The position numbers and the translations under genes were made by a program. Source: Candidatus Saccharimonadota bacterium (lineage in GTDB: Bacteria; Patescibacteriota; Saccharimonadia; Saccharimonadales; UBA4665). Taken from it: DNA of 32,000 nt. Each line of letters starts with the position of its first letter. Within the stretch, counting starts at the first letter, position 1. Location of the stretch: positions 871,374-903,373 of the forward strand of contig CP023991.1 in assembly GCA_003516025.1 (NCBI GenBank). The letters are read 5' to 3'. This document shows, one piece after another, positions 8,824-28,270 of the stretch. The notes beneath the pieces were generated by a model, which ran no database searches, was not told the origin of the DNA, and saw nothing but the letters and a program-made list of their open reading frames with translations.

Positions 8824-9024
8824 CTATTCTTCGGTCTTCTTGGAGCGGCGAGAGATGCGGCCACCGACAGCACCGGCTTTGCGGGCCAGTTCGCGGTTAG
8901 CAGCGAATCCGCCAGTGTGACCTAAGCGGCCACCCTTGGCACCGATCTTCGCGTAAAAGTCAGCACCATATTTTTTCTTATTAGTCGCGGCAGCAGCTTG
9001 GCCGCCAGCTTTAGTTCCAGCCAT
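8824..9024 (-). CDS. KGG-repeat / YciG-GsiB-like general stress protein, 66 aa
   Basis: A small Gly/Lys/Ala-rich protein with repeated G-x-K/V-GG units (IGAKGGRLGHTGGF, AGAVGGRISRR). A strong SD GGGAGG is present, and the gene is a paralog of 9203..9421. Confidence 0.65.
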   Translation of the reverse strand: MAGTKAGGQAAAATNKKKYGADFYAKIGAKGGRLGHTGGFAANRELARKAGAVGGRISRRSKKTEE

Positions 9025-9202: not shown

Positions 9203-9421
9203 TTAACTGTCTATACTGTCGTCTGCCTTACCGCGGCGGCTTAAACGACCACCAATCGCACCGAACTTACGGGCGCGCTCGCGGCCTTCCTTGCCGGCCG
9301 CAAATCCACCGGTATGACCCTTCTGTCCGCCCATCCGACCGATGCGCGCATAAAAATCAGGTCCATACTTCTTCTTATTGGTCTTTGCAGCTTCCGTACC
9401 GCCATCTTTGGTTCCAGCCAT
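9203..9421 (-). CDS. KGG-repeat / YciG-GsiB-like general stress protein, 72 aa (tandem paralog)
   Basis: MAGTKDGG...IGRMGGQKGHTGGFAAG...FGAIGGRLSRR is roughly 60% identical by eye to the 66-aa neighbour. SD GAGGAG sits 8-9 nt before ATG 9421 but only 2-3 nt before ATG 9427, so 9421 is preferred. Confidence 0.65.
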   Translation of the reverse strand: MAGTKDGGTEAAKTNKKKYGPDFYARIGRMGGQKGHTGGFAAGKEGRERARKFGAIGGRLSRRGKADDSIDS

Positions 9422-9741
9422 AATCATTTCTCCTCGTTGCTTACATAGTAGGTGTTGTCCGAAGTAAAAGTAAGTACTAGCGAACTACCACCATAGTACG
9501 GGAAAAAGCTTATGTAAGGCTGTAAGATATTCCACTTACGCTAAAATATATCAGCAGCGCTCATATACGTACGTGGCTCTTATATATATGTTGGCTTACC
9601 CGCACCACAGAGGCAGTGCGCACGACATATATAGCCTTGGCTAGGCGTAAATTATAAAACTGGTGTTCATTTTGGTGGAGACATGAGACTGGTGTTTCCA
9701 TTTAGTGTTTTTGATTTTTGTTTTGAGTATTTTTTGTATGT

Positions 9742-10814: not shown

Positions 10815-11143
10815 TGCACTCCTCTGAATTAATCGTCAACAAGGACGACCAATTCAGAGAACGTAAAAAGTCAATGCCTCTATTAGTACGCTTCGGCTAC
10901 ACATGTTGCCATGCTTCCACCTTGCGCCTATCAACCTGATCGTCTTTCAGGGAGGTCATAGGGAAATCTAATCTTGAGACTAGTTTCGCGCTTAATATGC
11001 TTTCAGCGCTTATCTATTCCGCACGATAGCTACTCAGCAATGCCCTTGGTAGAACAACTGATACACCAGCGGTGCGTCCGCCCCGGTCCTCTCGTACTAG
11101 GGGTAGACTCTCTCAAATTTCCTGACGTCCACAGCGGATATAA

Positions 11144-11177
<34 letters not shown>

Positions 11178-11205
11178 ACGTACCTCTTTAACCGGCGAAC
11201 AGCCG

Positions 11206-11236
<31 letters not shown>

Positions 11237-11295
11237 AGATGAGCCGACATCGAGGTGCCAAACAGCGCCGTCTATGTGAACTATTGGGCGCTATA

Positions 11296-11326
<31 letters not shown>

Positions 11327-11685
11327 AAAGCGCTGTCGATACCACACTCTTGTACAAATGTACTGACAGCGGAAAACTTACTCCGACTTTCGTCCCTGCT
11401 CGGCTTGTAGGCCTCACAGTCAAGCTGGCTTATGCGTATGCACTATCGATACGATTTCCATCCGTACCTAGCCAACCTTTGAACGCCTCCGATACTCTTT
11501 AGGAGGCAACCGCCCCAGTTAAACTACCCACCAGACACGGTCCCCGAACCGGATAACGGTCCGAGTAAGAACAAGAAGTATACAAGGGTGGTATTTCACT
11601 GGTGACTCCACCTCAGCTAGCGCCGAGGCTTCAAAGTCTCCCACCTATGCTACACATGTATACCCCCAATTCAATGTCAAGCTGT

Positions 11686-11717
<32 letters not shown>

Positions 11718-12017
11718 GCGGACAGACGGCATCTTTACCGTCAATGCACTTTCACCGAGCTCTTCGTTGAGACAGTACCCATATCATTACGCCATTCGTG
11801 CAGGTCAGAACTTACCTGACAAGGAATTTCGCTACCTTAGGACGGTTATAGTTACCGCCGCCGTTCACCGGGGCTTCAGTTCAAAGCGTAAACCTCTCCC
11901 CTTAACCTTCCGGCACCGGGCAGGCGTCAGCCCGTATACATCCACTTTCGTGTTAGCACAGACCTATGTTTTTGGTAAACAGTTGCATGGGCTCCTTAGC
12001 TGCGGCCCCCTCATCGT

Positions 12018-12219
12018 AACCACCACAAGGGCGAATACAATGGTTGGACTATAGCTTTCTTTCAAAGCCAGCTAACCTATTGCTAGATTAGCCCGATATG
12101 TCTCAATTATTTCTCGATAAGTTTTTTACGTAAAAGTTATTACTCTTCAAAACCTATGTTTTCTTGAAAGAAAACTAAGCAAATCTCATGTATCCACTGA
12201 TGAACTATCATTGATGGAC
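12018..12219 (-). other. 23S insertion 1: ~200-nt element closed by a 12-bp stem, AT-rich interior, no ORF
   Basis: CCCCCTCATCGT (12006-12017) pairs with ACGATGAGGGGG (12220-12231). An inner 10-bp stem joins TTTCTTTCAA and TTGAAAGAAA. The element lies between the conserved GCCGTAACTTCGG and CAACTGTTTACCAAAAACA blocks, where E. coli has ~45 nt (helix 63 region, from memory). Confidence 0.75.
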
Positions 12220-13431
12220 ACGATGAGGGGGCAGGCCTTATTCCGAAGTTACGGCCGCTTGTTTGCCGAGTTCCTTAACGAAGAATCACTCGTACACCTT
12301 GGTCTACTCGACCTGAGCACCTGTGTCGGTTTGCGGTACGGATTGCATGAGCCACGCGTTAGATTGCTTTTCTAGTCAGTACTTTCATCAGAATTCCGCC
12401 AAAAAGGCAGTTTCATTCGTACCCATTTCTGATACTTAGACGGATATAACCATGAACCCGCTCTAACTAATATACCGCGCACATCTAACAAACTCATGCA
12501 AGTACGGGAATATTAACCCGTTGTCCATCGCCTACGCTACGCGCCTCGGCTTAGGACCGACTAACCCTGGGACGATTATCGTGGCCCAGGAAACCTTGCT
12601 CTTTCGGTGGGCAGGATTCTCACCTGCCTTATGGTTACTCATTCCAGCATTCTCACTTGATAACGCTCCACCAGACCTCACAGTCCGACTTCAATGCAAT
12701 ATCAACGCTCCTCTACCACGCAGAACAATAAATTGTTCCACATCCATATCTTCGGTGCTATGCTTGAGCCCCGTTACATTTTCCGCGCAAGATCTCTTGA
12801 CTAGTGAGCTGTTACGCACTCTTTAAATGAATGGCTGCTTCTAAGCCAACATCCTAGTTGTTTAAGAAATCTCACCTCGTTTCCCACTTAGCATAGACTT
12901 AGGGACCTTAGATGATGGTCTGGGCTGTTTCCCTTTTGAGCGACGAGCTTAGCCCCGCCGTTCTAACTGCTGTAGTTCCGCATGTAGTATTCGTAGTTTA
13001 TCAAGGGTGGGTAATCTTGCGACCCCCAGTCCAAAACAGAGCTCTACCCCTACATGTTACCGTACAACGCTAGCCCTAAAGCTATTTCGAGGAGAACCAG
13101 CTATCTCCAGGTTCGATTGGCATTTCACCGCTAACCACAGGTCATCCGGGTGTGTTGCAACGCACTACGGTTCGGTCCTCCACGTCGTTTTACCGACGCT
13201 TCAACCTGCCCATGGTTAGGTCACCTGGTTTCGGGTCTATTCATAGTAACTAATTCGGCCTATTCAGCCTCGCTTTCACTGCGCCTCCGTCAAATGACTT
13301 AAGCATGCTACTACAAATAACTCGCTGGATCGTTCTACAAAAAGCACCCCGTCACAAGATAAATCTTGCTCCGAGTCCTTGTACGCACACAATTTCAGGT
13401 TCTATTTCACTCCCCTTCCGGGGTTCTTTTA

Positions 13432-13462
<31 letters not shown>

Positions 13463-13613
13463 ATCGTTAGATATATTTAGCCTTAGGAGGTGGACCTCCC
13501 AAATTCAGTCAGGGTTTCACGTGTCCCGACCTACTCAACAAACAAATGATAAAGTTTGCAACACTTGGCATACCAGGCTTTCACTGTCTATGGCGGAACT
13601 TTCCAGATCCTTC

Positions 13614-13828
13614 TGCTCGCATCGCAAATTTTTTACTTTATACAAACGGTGGTAGCGTTTGTCTGCCAATATTGAAACCCGAGTAAACTCGAGACTCAAT
13701 ACTGGTGATTTGTATGTTACAACCCCTTAATAATATTCGTCTACCAACTTATTTGCCGCGCCCCTATCCTTTCACTTAGACGAATCTAAGGTTCGGGATA
13801 AGTTTACAAACAAAAATCATTAAAGTTT
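13614..13828 (-). other. 23S insertion 2: ~215 nt where E. coli has ~35 nt (domain I), no ORF
   Basis: It lies between the conserved GTGGCGAGCGAAACCGG... and ...GGATCTGGAAAGTTCCGCC blocks. Internal stems include ATTCGTCTA/TAGACGAAT and ACAAACG/CGTTTGT. Confidence 0.7.
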
Positions 13829-14243
13829 GGGCTCTACCGGTTTCGCTCGCCACTACTTCCGGCATCGTTGTTTACTTTCTTTTCCTCGGGGTACTAAGAT
13901 GTTTCAGTTCCCCCGGTTACCGCTCTCCAACCCTATATATTCAGGCCGGCGCCATATGACATTACTCATATGAGGTTTCCCCATTCGGAAATCTCCGGTT
14001 CATAGCTTAGTTAGCAGCTCCCCGGAGCTTATCGCAGCTCCTTACGTCCTTCATCGGTATCTAACGTCAAGGCATCCTTTGTGTGCGCTTGAGTAACTTT
14101 TTACGTAACATATATGTTCCGAAGAACACATATGCTTTGTGCAATTGACTAGTTATTGGTGATTATCATATGACCCGAAAAAAATCATAGATAGTATATC
14201 CCCAATAGCCGTATGTCTATTGTCTTTCTTATCTCTCATTGTC

Positions 14244-14602: not shown

Positions 14603-15016
14603 TCACTTTTTCCAGACAAAGTATGGCTTATCCAAGTACAATGCTACCCTGGCTGGCTTTACGTCTGTTTTTATCAGGTGCGTATGCTGGTGGGCAGCTA
14701 CTGAGCGGGTAACATTATCGACTGAGCGCATGTAGACGTTATACTCATGCTCATACTGAGCAATAAACTGCATAATGTCAGCCAACTCTTCTTTTGAAAG
14801 CTCCCTGAGGCCGCTGACGTGACGCTTTGGCACCACCATTAAGTGATCCACCACATCCCGATACTCCCATATATCGTATGGGTACTTGTTAAACAGCACC
14901 ACTACGTGAGGAGTTTCGGCGATTATCCGGCGTTCTGCTTCCAGGTTACAAAATGGACAATCACGATCTTTCGGCTCTGACAAAAATTGCTTGATTGACG
15001 AACGATATCTAAACAT
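14603..15016 (-). CDS. HIT (histidine triad) family nucleotide hydrolase/transferase, 137 aa
   Basis: It has the histidine-triad motif HQHTHLI near the C-terminus and an N-terminal CPFC motif typical of HIT proteins. TATAAT lies 6 nt before the ATG. The gene looks more AT-rich than neighbouring core genes. Confidence 0.75.
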   Translation of the reverse strand: MFRYRSSIKQFLSEPKDRDCPFCNLEAERRIIAETPHVVVLFNKYPYDIWEYRDVVDHLMVVPKRHVSGLRELSKEELADIMQFIAQYEHEYNVYMRSVDNVTRSVAAHQHTHLIKTDVKPARVALYLDKPYFVWKK

Positions 15017-23379: not shown

Positions 23380-26300
23380 TTAGGATTGTGGGGCTGATGC
23401 CGCGTTGGGATCGGTCCGAGACTTAAGGTTACCCTCTTTGTCGATATAAATCGTGTCCTCTGGCGTTGAATCTTTGACGTTAGCCCGCGGCTGTGGCAGG
23501 ACGATGCCATCCTCCATGATAAGATTCTGGTCTATGACAAGCTCTTCGGACACCGTCGGAGCCGGTACGACCGGTATGTTTTCAGTCACCTGCGGAGTCA
23601 CTGCTAATGGCATGGGCGCTGCCGAGGCGGCTGCCGGAACTGGCGATGGAGATTGTGCGACGTGGCCTATAGGCGGGTGGACCGATGTCGCGGGCACGGT
23701 TACGGTTACCGGTGGTGTGGGCCGGTGGATTGGTTCAGGCGTGGCCGGATGCCACACCGGCTGCTGATAAGCGTGCGGTGACTGAGATTGCAGCGCCGTT
23801 TGCGGCGCGGTTGCCGGGCGGGCGGACGGAGCTGTCGGCATCTGCTGCCGTTTAGCAAGCCAGTCGTCCAGGAATGAACCACCCGCCGCAGGCGCCCCGC
23901 CTGCCGGGCGCTGAGCGGCGGCAGGCTGACCGAACTGTCCTGCCGGGCGGCCAAAGCCACCGGCAGCACCAGGTGCCACCGGTGAAGTTGCCGTGCCGTT
24001 ACCAAAAGCTGGAGTCGCTGGCCGGGATTCTTCTTTCGTAGCCAGGCGCGCGAATACCTCTTTTTCAACGGCGGCCCGCGGCTTGCCGTACTTAGCGGCC
24101 GAAAGCTGCTTCAAGGCATTGAATAACTGGGAGTTAGGGTTGCCGAGCGGCGGTAGGGTTGCCATAGAGAACGGATTGGTCGGCACTCCGCCCACAAGCG
24201 TACGGACAATGGCATTATGGTTTGGTATGCGCAGCAGGTCATCGGAGTCGAATGTTGGCTGGAAATACTTGGTAATAGCCTCGACGTCGTTCTGGCCGAT
24301 ACGGAAGGACACTATGGTACCCATGTTACCGAACACGGCGTCACGGATTTCTTCGGTCAGCTGGGTAGTAAACTGGTTAGCCACAATCAGATTCAGGTGA
24401 TACTTACGAGCTTCGGACATGATGGTCGCGAACGAATCGGTGGAAAAGTTCTGGAACTCATCGACGTACAAGGCAAAATCCTTACGCTCGCTCTCGGGGA
24501 TGCTGGCACGGCTCATAGCAGCCGCCTGGAACTTCATAACGAAGATCATGCCCAGTAGTTTGCTGTTAAGATCCCCTACCCGGCCCTTGGAAAGGTTTAC
24601 CAGCAGAATCTTCTTATTGTCCATCACATCGCGCAGGTCAAACGAGCTTTTGGTCTGGCCGATAATATTACGCATCATCTCATTGCTCAGGAAAGCGCCG
24701 AACTTTGATACGAACCAACTGACTACCTCACCGAAGTCGTTACTGCGCTGGGACTGCGGCATTTCCTTCGTCCAGAACTCTATAACATTCTGGTCGGTCA
24801 CATACTGCAGTTTCTGCTTAACGTACTGCGGATCGCGGAACAGCTTAGGGATATCTATGAATGTTCCACCCGCCGGATCAGCCATGACCGTAAGCGCAGC
24901 CATGCGGAATAAATGCTCATAACGCGGCCCCATGATGCCTTGATGCTGCGGATCGTACAGCTTATAGAGCATGTTGAGGGTTTCCTGAATCAGGAAGTCT
25001 TTCTGATCGGGATTATTAAACTCGAACAGGTTGAGGCCCATTGGATATTCCAGGTCGGCAGGACTGAAATAAATGACGTCCTCGGTGCGCTCTTTTGGTA
25101 CCATAGAGAGGATTTTTTCGGCCGTATCACCGTGCGGGTCAATAAAGGCGAAGCCATCGCCGTTCAGCATATCCTGCAACGCCAAGTTTTCGAGAAATGT
25201 TGATTTACCGGTACCGGTCTGACCGACGGCATACATATGCCGTTGCCGGTCGCCGAGAGCTAGACGCACCGGCTTTTTGACATTACGGAAGACGTTATAA
25301 CCCAGCAGCAGCCCTTCGTCCGGCATGTTGCGCGGACCGTCCACCTGCTTGGACATTTGGCGGGTCAGCTGTGAAGTCGGCGCGTTCTGGCCATCAGGAA
25401 AGTGGAACAACGTAGCCAGCTCAACGGCATTCAAAATATTCTTATTCTTCTTTTGCGGGAAGAAACGCATGATGTAGCCGGTGACGAAACTTTCCATGTC
25501 TTTGGCCGGCGTGTACTTGAAGCCATTTTTGCCGGGCGCGTCATACAGGGAGAATGTGGCGACAACGTTATTAAGGATCGCCTGGGCGCGCTGTGACACA
25601 TTGGAAGAAGCCACGACCCGTATCATCACCTCATAACCGGGATGCCTGGTCTTATCGTCAATAGAATCGAGCACCTGCTGTTCCAGGGCTGACAATTCCT
25701 TGGGCTTCTCTTCGCCCTTCCCACTATTATCGTCAGGAGGCTTAACAAAAGCAGTCATGAACTGCTTGAAGCCGTTACTGACCGCTTCAGCACCCTTGCT
25801 TCCCTCTTTACCCTTACGCTTTTTACTGGCAAGACCAGTGGCAGTTTTGCGCCAGCCCGGGTCGGCCGGACGCATAAGTATCTGAATACCGGCGCCGTCT
25901 TCCTTTTCAAGCGTCGACAAAGCATTTAACAACGAAACCATGGCGTCACGCTTCAGGTCCTGATACGTCGCGATGGGATAGGCGAAAGAGCTCTTTAAAT
26001 TAAGCTCGCCGCCGACCGTGCTGATAACCTTGCCGACCGGACTAAAAATATTGTGTTCAGCTACTTCTTCGAGCCGGGCCGCCGGATAGGCGCTGGTGAC
26101 CGCCTGCTTAACAACATCGACTAAAGCCACCGGAACCGCGGCATAGTAATATACAAAACCGTGAGTGCCGATAATCTCAAAGGCAAAATGGCGCTGGCCG
26201 TAGAACTTAGCCTTAAAACCCTTCTGCAGCGTGCTGGCAATAATGTTGTAAATAATTTGTGCTTTGCTGATTGTTTCATCTGTTAAATCGCGTTGGTCGC

Positions 26301-26481
26301 GGCCACCGCCCTGCAAGTCCTCACTTGGAGGCGGCAGGTTAATAAGCAGCGGTACCATCTTCAGGCCGCGTTCATAATTCTTCTGTTCACGCATGCTGCG
26401 GCGGGAACGCAAGAAGACTACCGGCGCTGCCACGCTGCCGATAACGATAATTATAATAAGTATAGTGAATAAGGCGGTCAT
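23380..26481 (-). CDS. Membrane-anchored P-loop NTPase of the TraD/VirD4 (type IV coupling protein) / HerA / FtsK superfamily, 1033 aa, with a ~250-aa Pro/Ala/Gln-rich C-terminal tail
   Basis: It begins with an N-terminal TM helix (FTILIIIIVIGSVAAPVVFL). The core carries Walker A VGQTGTGKSTF, IDPHGD, Walker B FALYVDEFQNF and ANQFTTQL. The tail is low complexity (PAGQFGQPAAAQRPAGGAPAAGG...PTPPVTVTVPATS...). The exact family is unresolved without an HMM search. Confidence 0.7.
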   Translation of the reverse strand: MTALFTILIIIIVIGSVAAPVVFLRSRRSMREQKNYERGLKMVPLLINLPPPSEDLQGGGRDQRDLTDETISKAQIIYNIIASTLQKGFKAKFYGQRHFAFEIIGTHGFVYYYAAVPVALVDVVKQAVTSAYPAARLEEVAEHNIFSPVGKVISTVGGELNLKSSFAYPIATYQDLKRDAMVSLLNALSTLEKEDGAGIQILMRPADPGWRKTATGLASKKRKGKEGSKGAEAVSNGFKQFMTAFVKPPDDNSGKGEEKPKELSALEQQVLDSIDDKTRHPGYEVMIRVVASSNVSQRAQAILNNVVATFSLYDAPGKNGFKYTPAKDMESFVTGYIMRFFPQKKNKNILNAVELATLFHFPDGQNAPTSQLTRQMSKQVDGPRNMPDEGLLLGYNVFRNVKKPVRLALGDRQRHMYAVGQTGTGKSTFLENLALQDMLNGDGFAFIDPHGDTAEKILSMVPKERTEDVIYFSPADLEYPMGLNLFEFNNPDQKDFLIQETLNMLYKLYDPQHQGIMGPRYEHLFRMAALTVMADPAGGTFIDIPKLFRDPQYVKQKLQYVTDQNVIEFWTKEMPQSQRSNDFGEVVSWFVSKFGAFLSNEMMRNIIGQTKSSFDLRDVMDNKKILLVNLSKGRVGDLNSKLLGMIFVMKFQAAAMSRASIPESERKDFALYVDEFQNFSTDSFATIMSEARKYHLNLIVANQFTTQLTEEIRDAVFGNMGTIVSFRIGQNDVEAITKYFQPTFDSDDLLRIPNHNAIVRTLVGGVPTNPFSMATLPPLGNPNSQLFNALKQLSAAKYGKPRAAVEKEVFARLATKEESRPATPAFGNGTATSPVAPGAAGGFGRPAGQFGQPAAAQRPAGGAPAAGGSFLDDWLAKRQQMPTAPSARPATAPQTALQSQSPHAYQQPVWHPATPEPIHRPTPPVTVTVPATSVHPPIGHVAQSPSPVPAAASAAPMPLAVTPQVTENIPVVPAPTVSEELVIDQNLIMEDGIVLPQPRANVKDSTPEDTIYIDKEGNLKSRTDPNAASAPQS

Positions 26482-26487
26482 AGTCGT

Positions 26488-26880
26488 TTACTCGTCCACC
26501 GACCCGATAATTTTGTTGTAGCGCTTTTTCATATAATCAGCCTTAAGGGCATGGAGCGCCTTGGTCTGTTCGTGCGGGTCGTTCCGGGTCTGCTCCACTA
26601 TATGCTTGGCTTTCATAACCCATTCTTTTTCGATCAGGTCACCGTCATCGGCGGCGGCCGGTGCCGGAGGTACCGGCGCCTGTTTCACTACGCCGGGTTG
26701 GGGGCCAGCCGCTGGTTGCAGCGGTAACGTAACCGACAACACGGACGGAGAACCACCAGGTATCACTGGAGGCGCGATGGCTGGCGCCGGCGCGGTTTCA
26801 GGGGATGACACCGGTAATTCACCTAACTCAGGAGCCACCGGGCCATGTACGGTATTGTTATGATTTTGATCCATTTCCAT
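26488..26880 (-). CDS. Hypothetical protein, 130 aa: Pro/Ala-rich N-half, charged helical C-half
   Basis: Its stop lies 6 nt before the ATPase start, which suggests translational coupling. The C-half reads DLIEKEWVMKAKHIVEQTRNDPHEQTKALHALKADYMKKRYN. Confidence 0.6.
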   Translation of the reverse strand: MEMDQNHNNTVHGPVAPELGELPVSSPETAPAPAIAPPVIPGGSPSVLSVTLPLQPAAGPQPGVVKQAPVPPAPAAADDGDLIEKEWVMKAKHIVEQTRNDPHEQTKALHALKADYMKKRYNKIIGSVDE

Positions 26881-26933
26881 CTACGCTTTTCTATCTATAG
26901 ATTATACAACTATAATCAAATTATCCGCAGCGT

Positions 26934-27317
26934 TTACATTTTTCCGCCATCATTCCCCCCGAGGTACAGACGCGTAACGTAAAAGTACCCTGCCAGGAAT
27001 AATATTATGAGCGTGATGACATCGCGCGGCGTCAGCTGGCCGATAGACTGTAACGCCAATAACATAACCGGTAGCAGCGACAGCGAAACCACCAGGCCGT
27101 TGTATGGCACCGGCCTGAGCCTCCGGTCTAGTTTCAGCACCCGGGCCGTAAGCCGGACCCCGCAGTAAGAGATAACCAATAGAAGGATGAAGGCCGCTAC
27201 GAGCACTATTGGTGCCGAGTTGCGCGGATTCATAGCCGAAAAAAACAGCGTGGCTGCTACTACGGCCGTGACGAGCACGGCTAATTCCGGATACCGTTTC
27301 ATGTAGCGTTTTATCAT
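26934..27317 (-). CDS. Small integral membrane protein, 127 aa, ~4 predicted TM helices
   Basis: Four hydrophobic segments are visible (LAVLVTAVVAATLFF, IVLVAAFILLLVISY, LVVSLSLLPVMLLAL, VITLIILFLAGYFYV). It is the first gene of the three-gene minus-strand module. Confidence 0.65.
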   Translation of the reverse strand: MIKRYMKRYPELAVLVTAVVAATLFFSAMNPRNSAPIVLVAAFILLLVISYCGVRLTARVLKLDRRLRPVPYNGLVVSLSLLPVMLLALQSIGQLTPRDVITLIILFLAGYFYVTRLYLGGNDGGKM

Positions 27318-27358
27318 ACTGTACTAAGTATAAGCTTTTATAGGTCTATAACGGTACT

Positions 27359-27388
27359 AAAAAGCCGCGAATTGCTTCGCGGCTTTTT
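27359..27388 (-). terminator. Intrinsic terminator/attenuator 40 nt upstream of the membrane-module start codon
   Basis: GCCGCGAA-TTGC-TTCGCGGC is flanked by A5 and T5 runs, so it is bidirectional in form. On the minus strand it is followed by TTTTT and then by the 127-aa gene. Confidence 0.7.
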
Positions 27389-27725
27389 ACGGTTAATTAT
27401 TTGTAAGACAACGCCCCTGTATCAGGGCAAAAATTCAAAGGGCGACCAAGGCGATAAATCCGCTCATACAAATATAAACTATTGTAGCGCTTATCGCCTA
27501 TGGTCTGACTGACCGCTCCGTGTGCCGGTAAGGCATTTGGAGCGTTAGCGGCATCTTGGCTATGTACTATAAGGAGCCTAGGGATTCCTTATGAACCGGA
27601 AAAACGTGTAAGCAGTATTCTTCTCTGGTTTACATAGTCTAAATTTGAAAAGATTTCATTTTTAGCGATGCCGGTGATGTGTTCTGTAAGTTGTTAAAGA
27701 ATTCTTTTTTGTTTTTGTAACTTAC
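27389..27725 (-). ncRNA. Candidate ~340-nt structured leader RNA or independent ncRNA (promoter to terminator)
   Basis: It is bounded by the predicted promoter (27732-27760) and the terminator (27359-27388). Internal stems are CGCTCC..TGCC-loop-GGCA..GGAGCG (27514-27546), GGCGATAA/TTATCGCC (27460-27498), ATAAGGA/TCCTTAT (27569-27592) and CCCTG/CAGGG (27414-27426). There is no credible ORF, and I recognise no known riboswitch, SRP, tmRNA or 6S signature. Confidence 0.4.
27691..27700 (-). promoter_or_regulatory. boxA-like core in the minus-strand leader
   Basis: The minus strand reads TCTTTAACAA, an exact match to the 3' ten nt of E. coli boxA TGCTCTTTAACAA. It lies ~25-35 nt downstream of the predicted TSS. 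Confidence 0.4.
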
Positions 27726-27731
27726 TCTTTC

Positions 27732-27760
27732 ATCCTACTACGAATTAGGCGAAATGTCAA
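27732..27760 (-). promoter_or_regulatory. Predicted promoter driving the leader and membrane module
   Basis: The minus strand reads TTGACA-N17-TAGGAT (-35 at 27760-27755, -10 at 27737-27732). Confidence 0.55.
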
Positions 27761-28001: not shown

Positions 28002-28030
28002 TTGACACTATAAACAGTAATTTATAAGAT
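28002..28030 (+). promoter_or_regulatory. Predicted promoter of the sRNA candidate / comM leader
   Basis: It reads TTGACA-N17-TAAGAT, the same -10 hexamer and spacing as the predicted 16S promoter. Confidence 0.55.
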
Positions 28031-28036
28031 AGGCGT

Positions 28037-28195
28037 AGCACTGAATAAAAAAAGTGCTCAAAAATAAAAAACGAAAACTACAAAAGGGACAACAGCTACT
28101 CGCAGGTTGTTGTCCCACCAACAAACAGTTTTCAAACAAAATAGACAAAACCAAAACTACAAGACCCGCTCCGAGACTGGCGGGTCTTTTTCTTT
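28037..28195 (+). ncRNA. Candidate ~160-nt A/C-rich small RNA (or terminator-containing 5' leader of comM)
   Basis: The predicted TSS is ~28037. It contains the hairpin AGCAC..GTGCT and a 9-bp hairpin GGGACAACA-N13-TGTTGTCCC. A single-stranded CA-rich tract follows (CCAACAAACAG..CAAACAAAATAGACAAAACCAAAACTACAAG). It ends in the terminator AGACCCGC-N10-GCGGGTCT + TTTTTCTTT (28162-28195). Confidence 0.45.
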
Positions 28196-28270
28196 GCCTC
28201 AGTAACCGAAAAATTACTTATTTATGAACACAATCGCCTCATGCTTGCATGGCTGGCTCAGCCGCCTACA

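Follow-up and report, generated by a model that had tools for sequence, protein, structure and literature searches.

The subject of this analysis is a three-gene operon in a 32,000-nucleotide (nt) stretch of DNA, the window, from a Candidatus Saccharimonadota bacterium (assembly GCA_003516025.1, contig CP023991.1, positions 871,374-903,373). The genes, here called A, B and C, are co-directional on the minus strand, with a 53-nt gap between A and B and a 6-nt gap between B and C. On one side lies gyrB; on the other, a 920-nt spacer and then the divergent YifB/ComM gene. The largest product, C, is a membrane-anchored ATPase which, as modelled, joins an N-terminal domain of the VirB4 type to a motor of the VirD4/TrwB type. 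A first, sequence-only reading had called the trio a stand-alone membrane module built around a TraD/HerA/FtsK-type ATPase; the open reading frames (ORFs), their sizes and gaps, the motifs quoted from C, and the counts of transmembrane (TM) segments are all present as it gave them.

26934..27317, minus strand: gene A, 127 amino acids (aa), a four-TM membrane protein (ORF and hydropathy)
26488..26880, minus strand: gene B, 130 aa, soluble and Pro/Ala-rich (ORF and hydropathy)
23380..26481, minus strand: gene C, 1033 aa, a membrane-anchored ATPase with an N-terminal TM helix, DUF8128, a motor like that of type IV coupling proteins (T4CPs), and a disordered tail (ORF, homologs, AlphaFold2 (AF2) model, and Foldseek)

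All three are genuine genes and not chance ORFs, because C has close relatives in Saccharimonadales (a word-indexed search returned 6,345 homologs, of which the best 120 are 65-85% identical and come from this order), and because A and B are kept in position at 33-34 genome loci and 73 metagenome loci.

The ATPase itself is divided into four parts:

26410..26475, minus strand: C residues 3-24, a single TM helix (hydropathy score 2.66), followed by the basic stretch RSRRSMREQK
25297..26361, minus strand: C residues 41-395, DUF8128 (PF26449, precomputed), with a modelled fold like the VirB4 N-terminal domain
24082..25296, minus strand: C residues 396-800, the P-loop motor, with Walker A at 420-428, the Walker B residues DE at 674-675, and an all-alpha insertion at about 492-607
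23383..24081, minus strand: C residues 801-1033, a low-complexity Ala/Pro-rich linker ending in the motif EDTIYIDKEGNL (residues 1008-1019, window 23425-23460)

TM segments were called by a Kyte-Doolittle hydropathy scan. By the positive-inside rule, the anchor of C is predicted to run N-out/C-in, which would place the rest of the protein in the cytoplasm. This N-terminal helix is kept in nearly all homologs, and the catalytic residues K426, D674, and E675 are invariant across them.

The motor motifs (GQTGTGKST, residues 420-428; IDPHGD, 447-452; LYVDEFQNF, 671-679; ANQFTTQL, 701-708) belong to a TraD/VirD4-like member of the FtsK-HerA superfamily, which bears out the earlier description of a core resembling T4CPs or HerA/FtsK translocases. 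Against PDB sequences, the best match is TrwB (E 2e-6 with the single sequence, 5e-9 with a 63-sequence profile), with DotL at 3e-6; the similarity is concentrated near Walker A and Walker B. HerA is marginal in the sequence search, and the profile search finds no VirB4 chain at E<=1. The AF2 model of residues 1-800 has a pLDDT of 86.6. In Foldseek comparisons, its top matches are full-length TrwK/VirB4, and Cag-beta (8dol), DotL, and HerA are also matched. TrwB (about 420 aa) is covered over its full length (about 415-460 columns, TMt 0.58-0.66, E ~1e-12), and HerA structures match the motor only (E ~1e-12). The all-helical insertion of the model, at residues 492-607, lies between Walker A and Walker B, the position of the T4CP all-alpha domain.

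Family profiles are less generous. The searches proposed in the sequence-only reading give sub-threshold matches of C to TraG-D_C, TrwB_AAD_bind, DUF87, and FtsK_SpoIIIE and no match to T4SS-DNA_transf, and they place A and B in no family. The sub-threshold Pfam and NCBIfam matches of C also include AAA_22, SXT-TraD, CD1115-VirD4, TrbC, and CedD (E 4e-5). The FtsK_SpoIIIE match has an E value of 0.25 and 11 bits against a cut-off of 24. Neither HerA nor VirB4 fits as a family assignment: DUF87 scores 17.8 bits against 23.2, and the N-domain matches VirB4, not a HAS barrel; CagE_TrbE_VirB gives nothing at E<=1, and VirB4_plasma gives 12 bits against 590.

Residues 41-395 were the part that the sequence-only reading could not place. 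They constitute Pfam family DUF8128, precomputed both on a protein identical to C (P0001) and on all 120 listed homologs. Modelled alone, this domain reaches a pLDDT of 88.8 and a pTM of 0.86. Foldseek against the PDB finds 14 significant chains, all of them TrwK/VirB4 (E 2e-6 to 8e-4, TMq 0.40-0.44); the next match has an E value of 0.025. The resemblance to a known family does not refute the earlier idea; it ties the protein more closely to type IV secretion system (T4SS) machinery.

Since the motor matches TrwB and DotL, and the N-domain model matches only VirB4/TrwK, C as modelled is a hybrid: a VirB4-type N-domain (DUF8128) joined to a VirD4/TrwB-type motor. No published description of this architecture was found, and DUF8128, a recently created Pfam family, is not mentioned in the literature searched. 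The published hidden Markov model (HMM) for VirB4 finds about one VirB4 per Patescibacterial genome (PMC12102498, Quinonero-Coronel et al. 2025), so the DUF8128 ATPase family is not detected by that HMM.

Comparison with the two parent families shows what C shares with each. Like the T4CPs (VirD4/TrwB/TraD; DotL; Cag-beta), it has an N-terminal anchor, a cytoplasmic FtsK-HerA P-loop motor, and an all-alpha insertion between Walker A and Walker B; T4CPs also provide its best sequence matches and whole-length fold matches with TMt of about 0.6. It has a C-terminal extension, as TraD and DotL do, and a small partner encoded adjacent, as Cag-beta has in CagZ. Canonical T4CPs usually have two TM helices, however, whereas C has one, and in C a 355-aa VirB4-like domain separates anchor from motor. 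C also differs from T4CPs in scoring below all curated thresholds, in having no relaxase or T4SS neighbours that were seen, and in having an apparent ortholog that is essential for growth. Like VirB4/TrwK, C combines an N-domain with a RecA-like motor in about 800 aa, the N-domain model matching only VirB4 N-domains in the PDB, and a small membrane protein is encoded just upstream (A here; VirB3 for VirB4). Unlike VirB4/TrwK, it has no CagE_TrbE_VirB match, its motor is closer to VirD4, no T4SS cluster or VirB3 lies alongside, A has four TM segments and is not VirB3/PrgI-like, and relatives carry a separate VirB4 (SEML1_0008) in a T4SS cluster.

The tail (residues 801-1033) contains 39 Ala, 38 Pro, and 15 Gln, and is rich in Pro and Ala, as first described. 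Its linkers vary among homologs; despite this, most of the 45 Saccharibacterial homologs inspected carry (E/D)DTIxIDxxGN(L/F) near the C-terminus. Such a terminal motif has the docking-like pattern of a tethered peptide. Most homologs from outside the Saccharibacteria are about 780-860 aa long and lack the tail.

The two small proteins have no relatives in Pfam, NCBIfam, PADLOC, PHROGs, or PDB sequences, and the earlier remark that the accessory partners are uncharacterised therefore stands. The TM segments of A span residues 9-27, 31-49, 70-88, and 99-117; the N- and C-termini and the basic loop between TM2 and TM3 are predicted to lie in the cytoplasm. The A family, found at 33 Saccharibacterial genome loci, conserves TxP, SxGxL, and FYxxKR, and has no detectable similarity to VirB3 or PrgI. 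B has no TM segment. It consists of a disordered Pro/Ala-rich N-half and a conserved helical C-terminal part of about 50 aa (DLIEKEWVxKAKxIVxxTxxDPYxQ...ADYLKKRY); across 34 loci M3, P102, and Y116 are invariant and W87 and R120 nearly so. Profile searches against the PDB yielded only TM-composition noise for A and a spurious YoeB match (E 0.012) for B. The 53-nt spacer between A and B (26881-26933, minus strand) contains TTGTATAAT, which resembles an extended -10 element and could be an internal promoter for B and C.

The operon is conserved and chromosomally fixed in Saccharibacteria. Eighty genome loci were fetched; with metagenome contigs, about 160 related loci were compared, of which 20 non-Saccharibacterial loci were characterised by a Pfam run on 150 neighbours and the others were checked only for the trio and for comM, gyrB, and gyrA. 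The order comM - A - B - C - gyrB - gyrA is shared by the window, Southlakia, and about 30 genome loci. In Saccharibacterial loci comM is divergent and lies 1.2-3 kb upstream of the ATPase start, with gyrB/gyrA 0-3.2 kb downstream. The core-genome setting beside gyrB, read at first from the window alone, is thus confirmed and extends across the group. Synteny of the trio, which had been suggested as a check for Saccharibacteria and other genomes of the Candidate Phyla Radiation (CPR), holds for the former; in other CPR bacteria only the ATPase is conserved, and A, B, the tail, and the gyrB/comM arrangement were found only in Saccharibacteria. A divergent Saccharibacterial clade (L033, L038, and L040) has a 476-489-aa protein with one or two TM segments in the place of A, which is displaced about 5.7 kb upstream.

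Beyond Saccharibacteria, the DUF8128 ATPase is distributed across Patescibacteria/CPR. Full-length relatives of C, DUF8128 included, are 37-42% identical and occur in metagenome-assembled genomes labelled Berkelbacteria, Woesebacteria, Daviesbacteria, Levybacteria, Curtissbacteria, Staskawiczbacteria, Uhrbacteria, Magasanikbacteria, and Falkowbacteria. An exhaustive search with C returned 21,165 representative clusters at E<1e-3 and 5,413 at E<1e-30, counts that include a second CPR family, 43-48% identical to C in the motor only and lacking DUF8128. At the non-Saccharibacterial loci no A-like gene lies next to the ATPase. A protein of 120-190 aa usually does lie directly upstream; its N-half is disordered, its short C-end is helical and conserved, and it falls into at least three unrelated sequence families. 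Homology of B to these proteins was considered and rejected (three lineage families, hhalign probability <2%); the likeness is one of position and composition, by analogy only. Two superfamily ATPases are adjacent or a few kb apart in some of these genomes (L043, 7923-10490 and 13624-16551; L052, 7956-10328 and 12187-15408; L042, two adjacent), and Bacillus phage G encodes neighbouring gp155 and gp156. These arrangements hint at paired ATPases.

Functional evidence comes from a relative, Southlakia epibionticum ML1, for which transposon-insertion sequencing (Tn-seq) has been published (PMC10633639, Wang et al. 2023). Table S1 of that study lists L20, L35, IF-3, YifB (SEML1_0138, non-essential), a 2.85-kb spacer, SEML1_0140 (354 nt), a 53-nt gap, SEML1_0141 (420 nt), a 12-nt gap, and SEML1_0142 (3060 nt); two opposite-strand genes follow, then gyrB, gyrA, and the 16S rRNA gene. 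SEML1_0142 is annotated there as a 'TraM recognition domain-containing protein'. It is the apparent ortholog of C, on the basis of synteny, gap pattern, size, and annotation rather than alignment; the orthology is also supported by a locus from oral taxon 488 (L022), which has the same layout and an ATPase of 1019 aa, like SEML1_0142, that is 59% identical to C. In Table S1 the three genes are scored at T0/T1/T2 as non-essential (NE), growth defect (GD), or essential (ES):

SEML1_0140 (A-like): NE/GD/GD; insertions at T0 versus input, 8 versus 8; core family, Patescibacteria-enriched (PMC10633639)
SEML1_0141 (B-like): GD/ES/ES; insertions at T0 versus input, 0 versus 9 (PMC10633639)
SEML1_0142 (C-like): ES/ES/ES; insertions at T0 versus input, 11 versus 114; core family, Patescibacteria-enriched (PMC10633639)

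The published fitness data to which the sequence-only reading had pointed thus show the C-like and B-like genes to be essential and the A-like gene to have a growth defect. SEML1_0142 is one of only 61 class I essential genes, and the main text of the study never mentions SEML1_0140-0142 (PMC10633639). An internal promoter for B and C would fit the tolerance of insertions in the A-like gene while the B-like and C-like genes are essential.

These data bear first on whether C is an orphan TraD at the decayed edge of an integrative and conjugative element (ICE), or a HerA-type ATPase in a defence island. Weak matches to TraG-D_C and TraD would suit the former; a PADLOC match to mad8 (E 3.5e-17) and weak HerA matches to the motor domain would suit the latter. 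However, the genes hold the same core-genome position across the whole class, and the identity of 65-85% among the best 120 homologs indicates strong purifying selection. The family is CPR-wide, and the syntenic Southlakia gene is essential. The window shows no integrase, relaxase, or compositional anomaly, repeat boundaries not having been searched for; family scans of its proteins likewise find no VirB4/VirB6 or pilin, as the sequence-only reading had noted, and its ORFs without a family have no T4SS or mobile-element matches. GC content along the window reveals no island. Conserved core position, sequence conservation, and essentiality effectively exclude an ICE remnant or a defence role, and we consider either very improbable.

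A different view opens from the T4SS of Southlakia. This system (SEML1_0006-0019) is essential and lacks a recognisable coupling protein or relaxase (PMC10633639). It lies about 115 kb from SEML1_0140-0142, and its cluster already encodes a VirB4 (SEML1_0008) together with a protein that has a TrsD-like N-domain. Its genes show depletion comparable to that of the trio, mostly in class II; gyrB is in class I. The label 'stand-alone' is not established: relatives of the window's bacterium carry an essential T4SS elsewhere, without a recognised coupling protein. We propose, tentatively and at something just short of an even chance, that C is the missing coupling or energising ATPase of this separately encoded, essential Patescibacterial T4SS.

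How such an ATPase might work can be sketched. C would assemble as a membrane-associated ring, as its relatives do, and would energise or couple a T4SS encoded elsewhere on the chromosome. Its VirB4-like N-domain may dock it to an inner-membrane platform of the VirB3/VirB4/VirB8 type: in the R388 T4SS structures, which supply the top structural matches, the VirB4 N-domain sits in a VirB3/VirB4/VirB8 inner-membrane complex, and a T4CP motor with such an N-domain could, by analogy, dock alike. The tail of C and protein B may together form a substrate-receptor or adaptor module. Arrangements of this kind are familiar from TraD-TraM, from DotL and its adaptors, and from Cag-beta with its small regulator CagZ; a disordered tail with a terminal motif, plus a small upstream partner, resembles them. 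Finally, a leader RNA (described below) would set expression by transcription attenuation, in response to a signal.

The survey literature needs to be read with the second CPR family in mind. Its Southlakia member, SEML1_0293, is a T4CP-like paralog that passes TrwB_AAD_bind and is non-essential (PMC10633639). The two families have motors 43-48% identical and membrane-associated N-regions, and both lie far from virB4; the paralog differs in lacking DUF8128, in passing T4CP Pfam models, and in being dispensable. In a survey of 3,035 Patescibacterial genomes, 5,713 T4CP homologs were counted in 2,918 genomes, only 148 of them near virB4, and VirB4 was found in 2,417 genomes (PMC12102498). The authors remark that the ML1 t4cp homologue is not essential. 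This remark fits SEML1_0293, not SEML1_0142, and the DUF8128 protein appears to have been conflated with its paralog.

Several observations weigh against a T4SS role for C. The family lies outside any conjugative, ICE, or T4SS context in the roughly 160 related loci, within the checks made; this speaks against the earlier concern that homologs might sit inside complete conjugative loci, and it leaves C equally without a T4SS beside it. At the 20 non-Saccharibacterial loci the neighbours are housekeeping genes (ribonucleotide reductase, Cob_adeno_trans, CorA, and the genes of DNA metabolism and division considered below), and none of the 25 most frequent Pfam families among the 150 neighbours is a T4SS family. 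An apparent linkage in Microgenomates was rejected: the neighbours, at about 815 aa, are VirB4-sized, but the Pfam scan returned ribonucleotide reductase (6 members, in agreement with their number and size). T4CP-like genes occur in more Patescibacterial genomes (96%) than does VirB4 (80%) (PMC12102498). C does not pass the curated T4CP models: TraG-D_C scores 20.6 bits against 22, TrwB_AAD_bind 11 against 20.5, and SXT_TraD 38 against 366, and T4SS-DNA_transf has no match. The likeness of the N-domain to VirB4 is at the level of fold, from a predicted model with a TM of about 0.43. The transfer of essentiality passes through an ortholog assigned without alignment, as said. Full-length homologs of C also occur in Bacillus phages, which have no T4SS.

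These phage proteins match C in both domains (phrog_5156, E 5e-89). A tblastn search finds phage G gp156, SPO1 gp27.4, CP-51, JL, and others, and Foldseek against BFVD gives phage matches with E values of 2e-48 and 6e-41 and TMq up to 0.68. SPO1 gp27.4, phage G gp156, and the 'MsbA-like' protein of phage JL (phrog_5156) share the full length of DUF8128-like domain plus motor, at about 21-23% identity. They differ from C in that they have no TM segment of their own and no Pro/Ala tail and are sited among early/middle genes. Tiny TM proteins are encoded just upstream: gp27.5, gp27.6, and gp27.7 in SPO1, and a 2-TM protein in vB_BceS-M2. The phage homologs are uncharacterised, so no function can be transferred from them to C.

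That homologs work in phages without a T4SS is one of the points in favour of a T4SS-independent nucleic-acid translocase: a second membrane-anchored motor of the FtsK/HerA class, moving or clearing DNA in budding division or replication, with a role reflected in its adjacency to gyrase. The tight, stable linkage to gyrB/gyrA in Saccharibacteria agrees with this, as do neighbours in other CPR genomes that include Xer-type recombinases (6 of 20 loci), DNA polymerase III subunits, and DivIC. SEML1_0142 moreover falls with gyrB in essentiality class I, most T4SS genes falling in class II, and its motor is assigned by DPAM to the FtsK motor ECOD domain e2iutB2 (PMC10633639). C also shares with FtsK/SpoIIIE the superfamily, a membrane anchor, a ring assembly (proposed for C), and neighbours in DNA metabolism. 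Yet Southlakia already has a canonical FtsK (four TM segments, alpha, motor, and gamma domains), SEML1_0096, which is essential. Replacement of FtsK was rejected as a main idea on this ground. Unlike FtsK, C lacks the four-TM N-domain and the alpha and gamma domains, and with gamma any similar DNA-recognition domain; its FtsK_SpoIIIE match is the poor one given above, and its motor sequence is nearer to TrwB/DotL than to FtsK/HerA. The housekeeping neighbours, too, vary between lineages, so the gyrase linkage may be merely conserved gene order. On balance a DNA translocase of this kind is unlikely, though a serious contender.

The tiny TM proteins that precede the TM-less phage ATPases, and the small TM partner A upstream of C in Saccharibacteria, suggest another alternative: a self-contained minimal translocon, in which C and A would contribute one and four TM helices per protomer (five together) to a membrane channel of their own, and DNA, protein, or some other macromolecule would pass through it in either direction. 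In archaeal Ced DNA import, small membrane proteins work with a VirB4/HerA-like ATPase, and the weak NCBIfam match of C to the CedD DNA-translocating ATPase (E 4e-5) is in keeping with this analogy. Against it, the A family does not accompany the ATPase in non-Saccharibacterial CPR, and Southlakia tolerates insertions in the A-like gene with a growth defect only, while the B-like and C-like genes are essential. DNA import alone would not explain essentiality either, because ComEC-dependent competence is dispensable for viability (PMC12857230). Nor do A, B, or C have an extracellular domain of any appreciable size. The same observation disposes of the sequence-only suggestion of a host-interaction device: the module itself cannot make the contact with the host. 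A self-contained channel is accordingly rated as improbable, though less remote than an ICE remnant or defence island.

Whatever C drives, its expression is probably subject to control. The spacer upstream of A contains, on the strand of the operon, a promoter-like site and a leader with several structured parts:

27732..27760, minus strand: sigma-70-like promoter TTGACA-17-TAGGAT (promoter scan 10/12; nearly identical to the promoter of locus L086)
27680..27722, minus strand: 5'-proximal leader hairpin GUAAGU...CAAAAACAAAAA...CUUAC, immediately following the promoter, both in the window and in L004, L006, L012, L015, L085, and L086
27438..27546, minus strand: structured leader element comprising a P1 hairpin (CGCUC/GAGCG), an invariant GUCAGUCA linker, and a long bulged P2 hairpin (covariance model R1)
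27355..27389, minus strand: intrinsic terminator-like hairpin AGCCGCGAAGCAATTCGCGGCU with a U-run, ending about 40 nt before the A start codon

The conserved spacing of these parts suggests that the operon is transcribed from this promoter-like site with the leader at its 5' end: 123 of 127 leader-RNA instances have a TTGACN-N17-TAnnnT site upstream, and its distance to the GAGCGG core is kept within narrow limits (median 108 nt). The 920-nt spacer contains conserved non-coding blocks, for which tblastx finds no coding potential, and about 150 nt of genome-specific sequence separate the 5' hairpin from the P1/P2 element. The window copy of the element scores 91 bits (E 3e-19) with covariance model R1. 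Each Saccharibacterial locus has exactly one copy, on the operon strand and 50-200 nt upstream of A, with no further copies in 1.1 Mb of related loci. A pattern scan of metagenomes found more than 120 instances; all 73 that could be evaluated have an A-family ORF downstream, and on contigs of sufficient length B and C come next.

The secondary structure is supported by covariation. Pairing is kept at 97.4%, and compensatory changes occur in 9 of 18 pairs, against at most 3 in slid controls; none of 500 shuffles reached the observed score. In a 91-sequence alignment, P2 pairs carry 17-36 compensatory sequences each. The sequence-only reading had ascribed to the operon a long regulated leader, and the conserved promoter and covarying element support it with evidence beyond the reach of a single sequence. 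Comparison with Rfam (4,227 families) gives no match at gathering threshold or at E<=1, ARAGORN finds no transfer-messenger RNA, and the literature search turned up no description of the element.

The window and at least 6 of the 17 other loci inspected (L004, L005, L007, L009, L010, and L012) have a terminator-like hairpin plus T-run between the element and A, and L015 probably does too. Several other loci lack this terminator, and there the element ends 13-40 nt before the A start codon. An independent small RNA was considered as an alternative to a leader and is disfavoured, because the element lies so close to A where there is no terminator, and because the terminators elsewhere end about 10-60 nt before A, leaving little or no room for a separate promoter. 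In anatomy the element thus appears to be a leader of the attenuator/riboswitch type, of an apparently undescribed class, seen only in Saccharibacteria at this operon. It resembles known leaders of that type in its covarying structure, placed where the transcript of a single operon would begin, and in the terminator-like hairpin directly before the first gene in many genomes; it differs from them in having no Rfam match and in its restriction to one group and one operon.

The divergent side of the spacer has elements of its own. Upstream of comM/yifB, at 28002-28140 on the plus strand, a conserved TTGACA-17-TAAGAT promoter is followed by two conserved hairpins, one GCAC...GUGC and one a covarying ACAACGGCU-UCUCGCA-AGCCGUUGU stem. 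These elements are common to at least nine Saccharibacterial loci and in L004 run straight into comM (which starts at 28241 in the window); they are probably the comM promoter and 5' leader. A terminator-like hairpin plus U-run before the comM start codon (28161-28198, plus strand) is found in the window alone. Both divergent leaders carry an A-rich CAAAAACAAAAA just after the first 5' hairpin (ATPase operon, about 27700-27712, minus strand; comM, about 28062-28074, plus strand), possibly as a common signal for regulation or for ribosome recruitment.

The rest of the window is core genome, in the order PriA, Def, Fmt, DUF5663, IF-2, S1, ROK, a 5S-23S-tRNA-tRNA-16S operon, GyrA, GyrB, the module, the spacer, YifB/ComM, IF-3, and L20. 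A few features stand apart from the operon. Within the rRNA operon, a gap of about 980 nt between the 23S rRNA and tRNA-Ala genes holds an ORF of 137 aa with a HIT domain (14603-15016, minus strand; Pfam HIT E 8e-5, above cut-off), an unusual position for a protein-coding gene. The 23S rRNA match (10862-14103, minus strand) covers model positions 1-2925 in 3,242 nt, and the extra 300 nt or so may be an insertion or intervening sequence, such as have been reported for CPR rRNAs. Two small paralogous Lys/Gly-rich ORFs (8824-9024, 66 aa, and 9203-9427, 74 aa, both on the minus strand) with weak similarity to KGG stress repeats sit in an otherwise ORF-poor stretch of lower GC content at 8.7-10.5 kb.

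Part of this picture was already known: databases list the family under the name DUF8128, its members have been tallied with the 'T4CP homologs', and a supplementary table marks it as essential. The hybrid architecture, the distinction from the non-essential paralog, the partners, the tail motif, the phage relatives, and the leader RNA are not described in the literature searched. A bolder proposal, which we hold doubtful as a whole, is that the DUF8128 ATPase constitutes a third, separate class among T4SS ATPases, a hybrid of VirB4 N-domain and VirD4 motor and possibly an evolutionary intermediate; that it is the essential substrate-coupling engine of the Patescibacterial T4SS; and that in Saccharibacteria it is switched by a new riboswitch-like RNA sensing a host-derived or growth-state signal. 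If this were true, the feeding of an episymbiont would be linked to a single regulated motor.

Patescibacteria account for a sizeable fraction of bacterial diversity and rely on the cells of their hosts, and theirs is the first T4SS that its own bearer has been reported to need for survival. Two published papers note that this T4SS lacks a recognisable coupling protein and leave its substrate and mode of action open. The present locus offers a concrete, testable candidate for the missing motor. The VirB4-like docking domain, the tethered C-terminal peptide, and the small essential partner point to specific interactions, and the leader RNA could report the signal that controls the machinery. 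Even without a link to the T4SS, a translocase that is essential, spans the phylum, and has relatives in Bacillus phages would add something new to biology.

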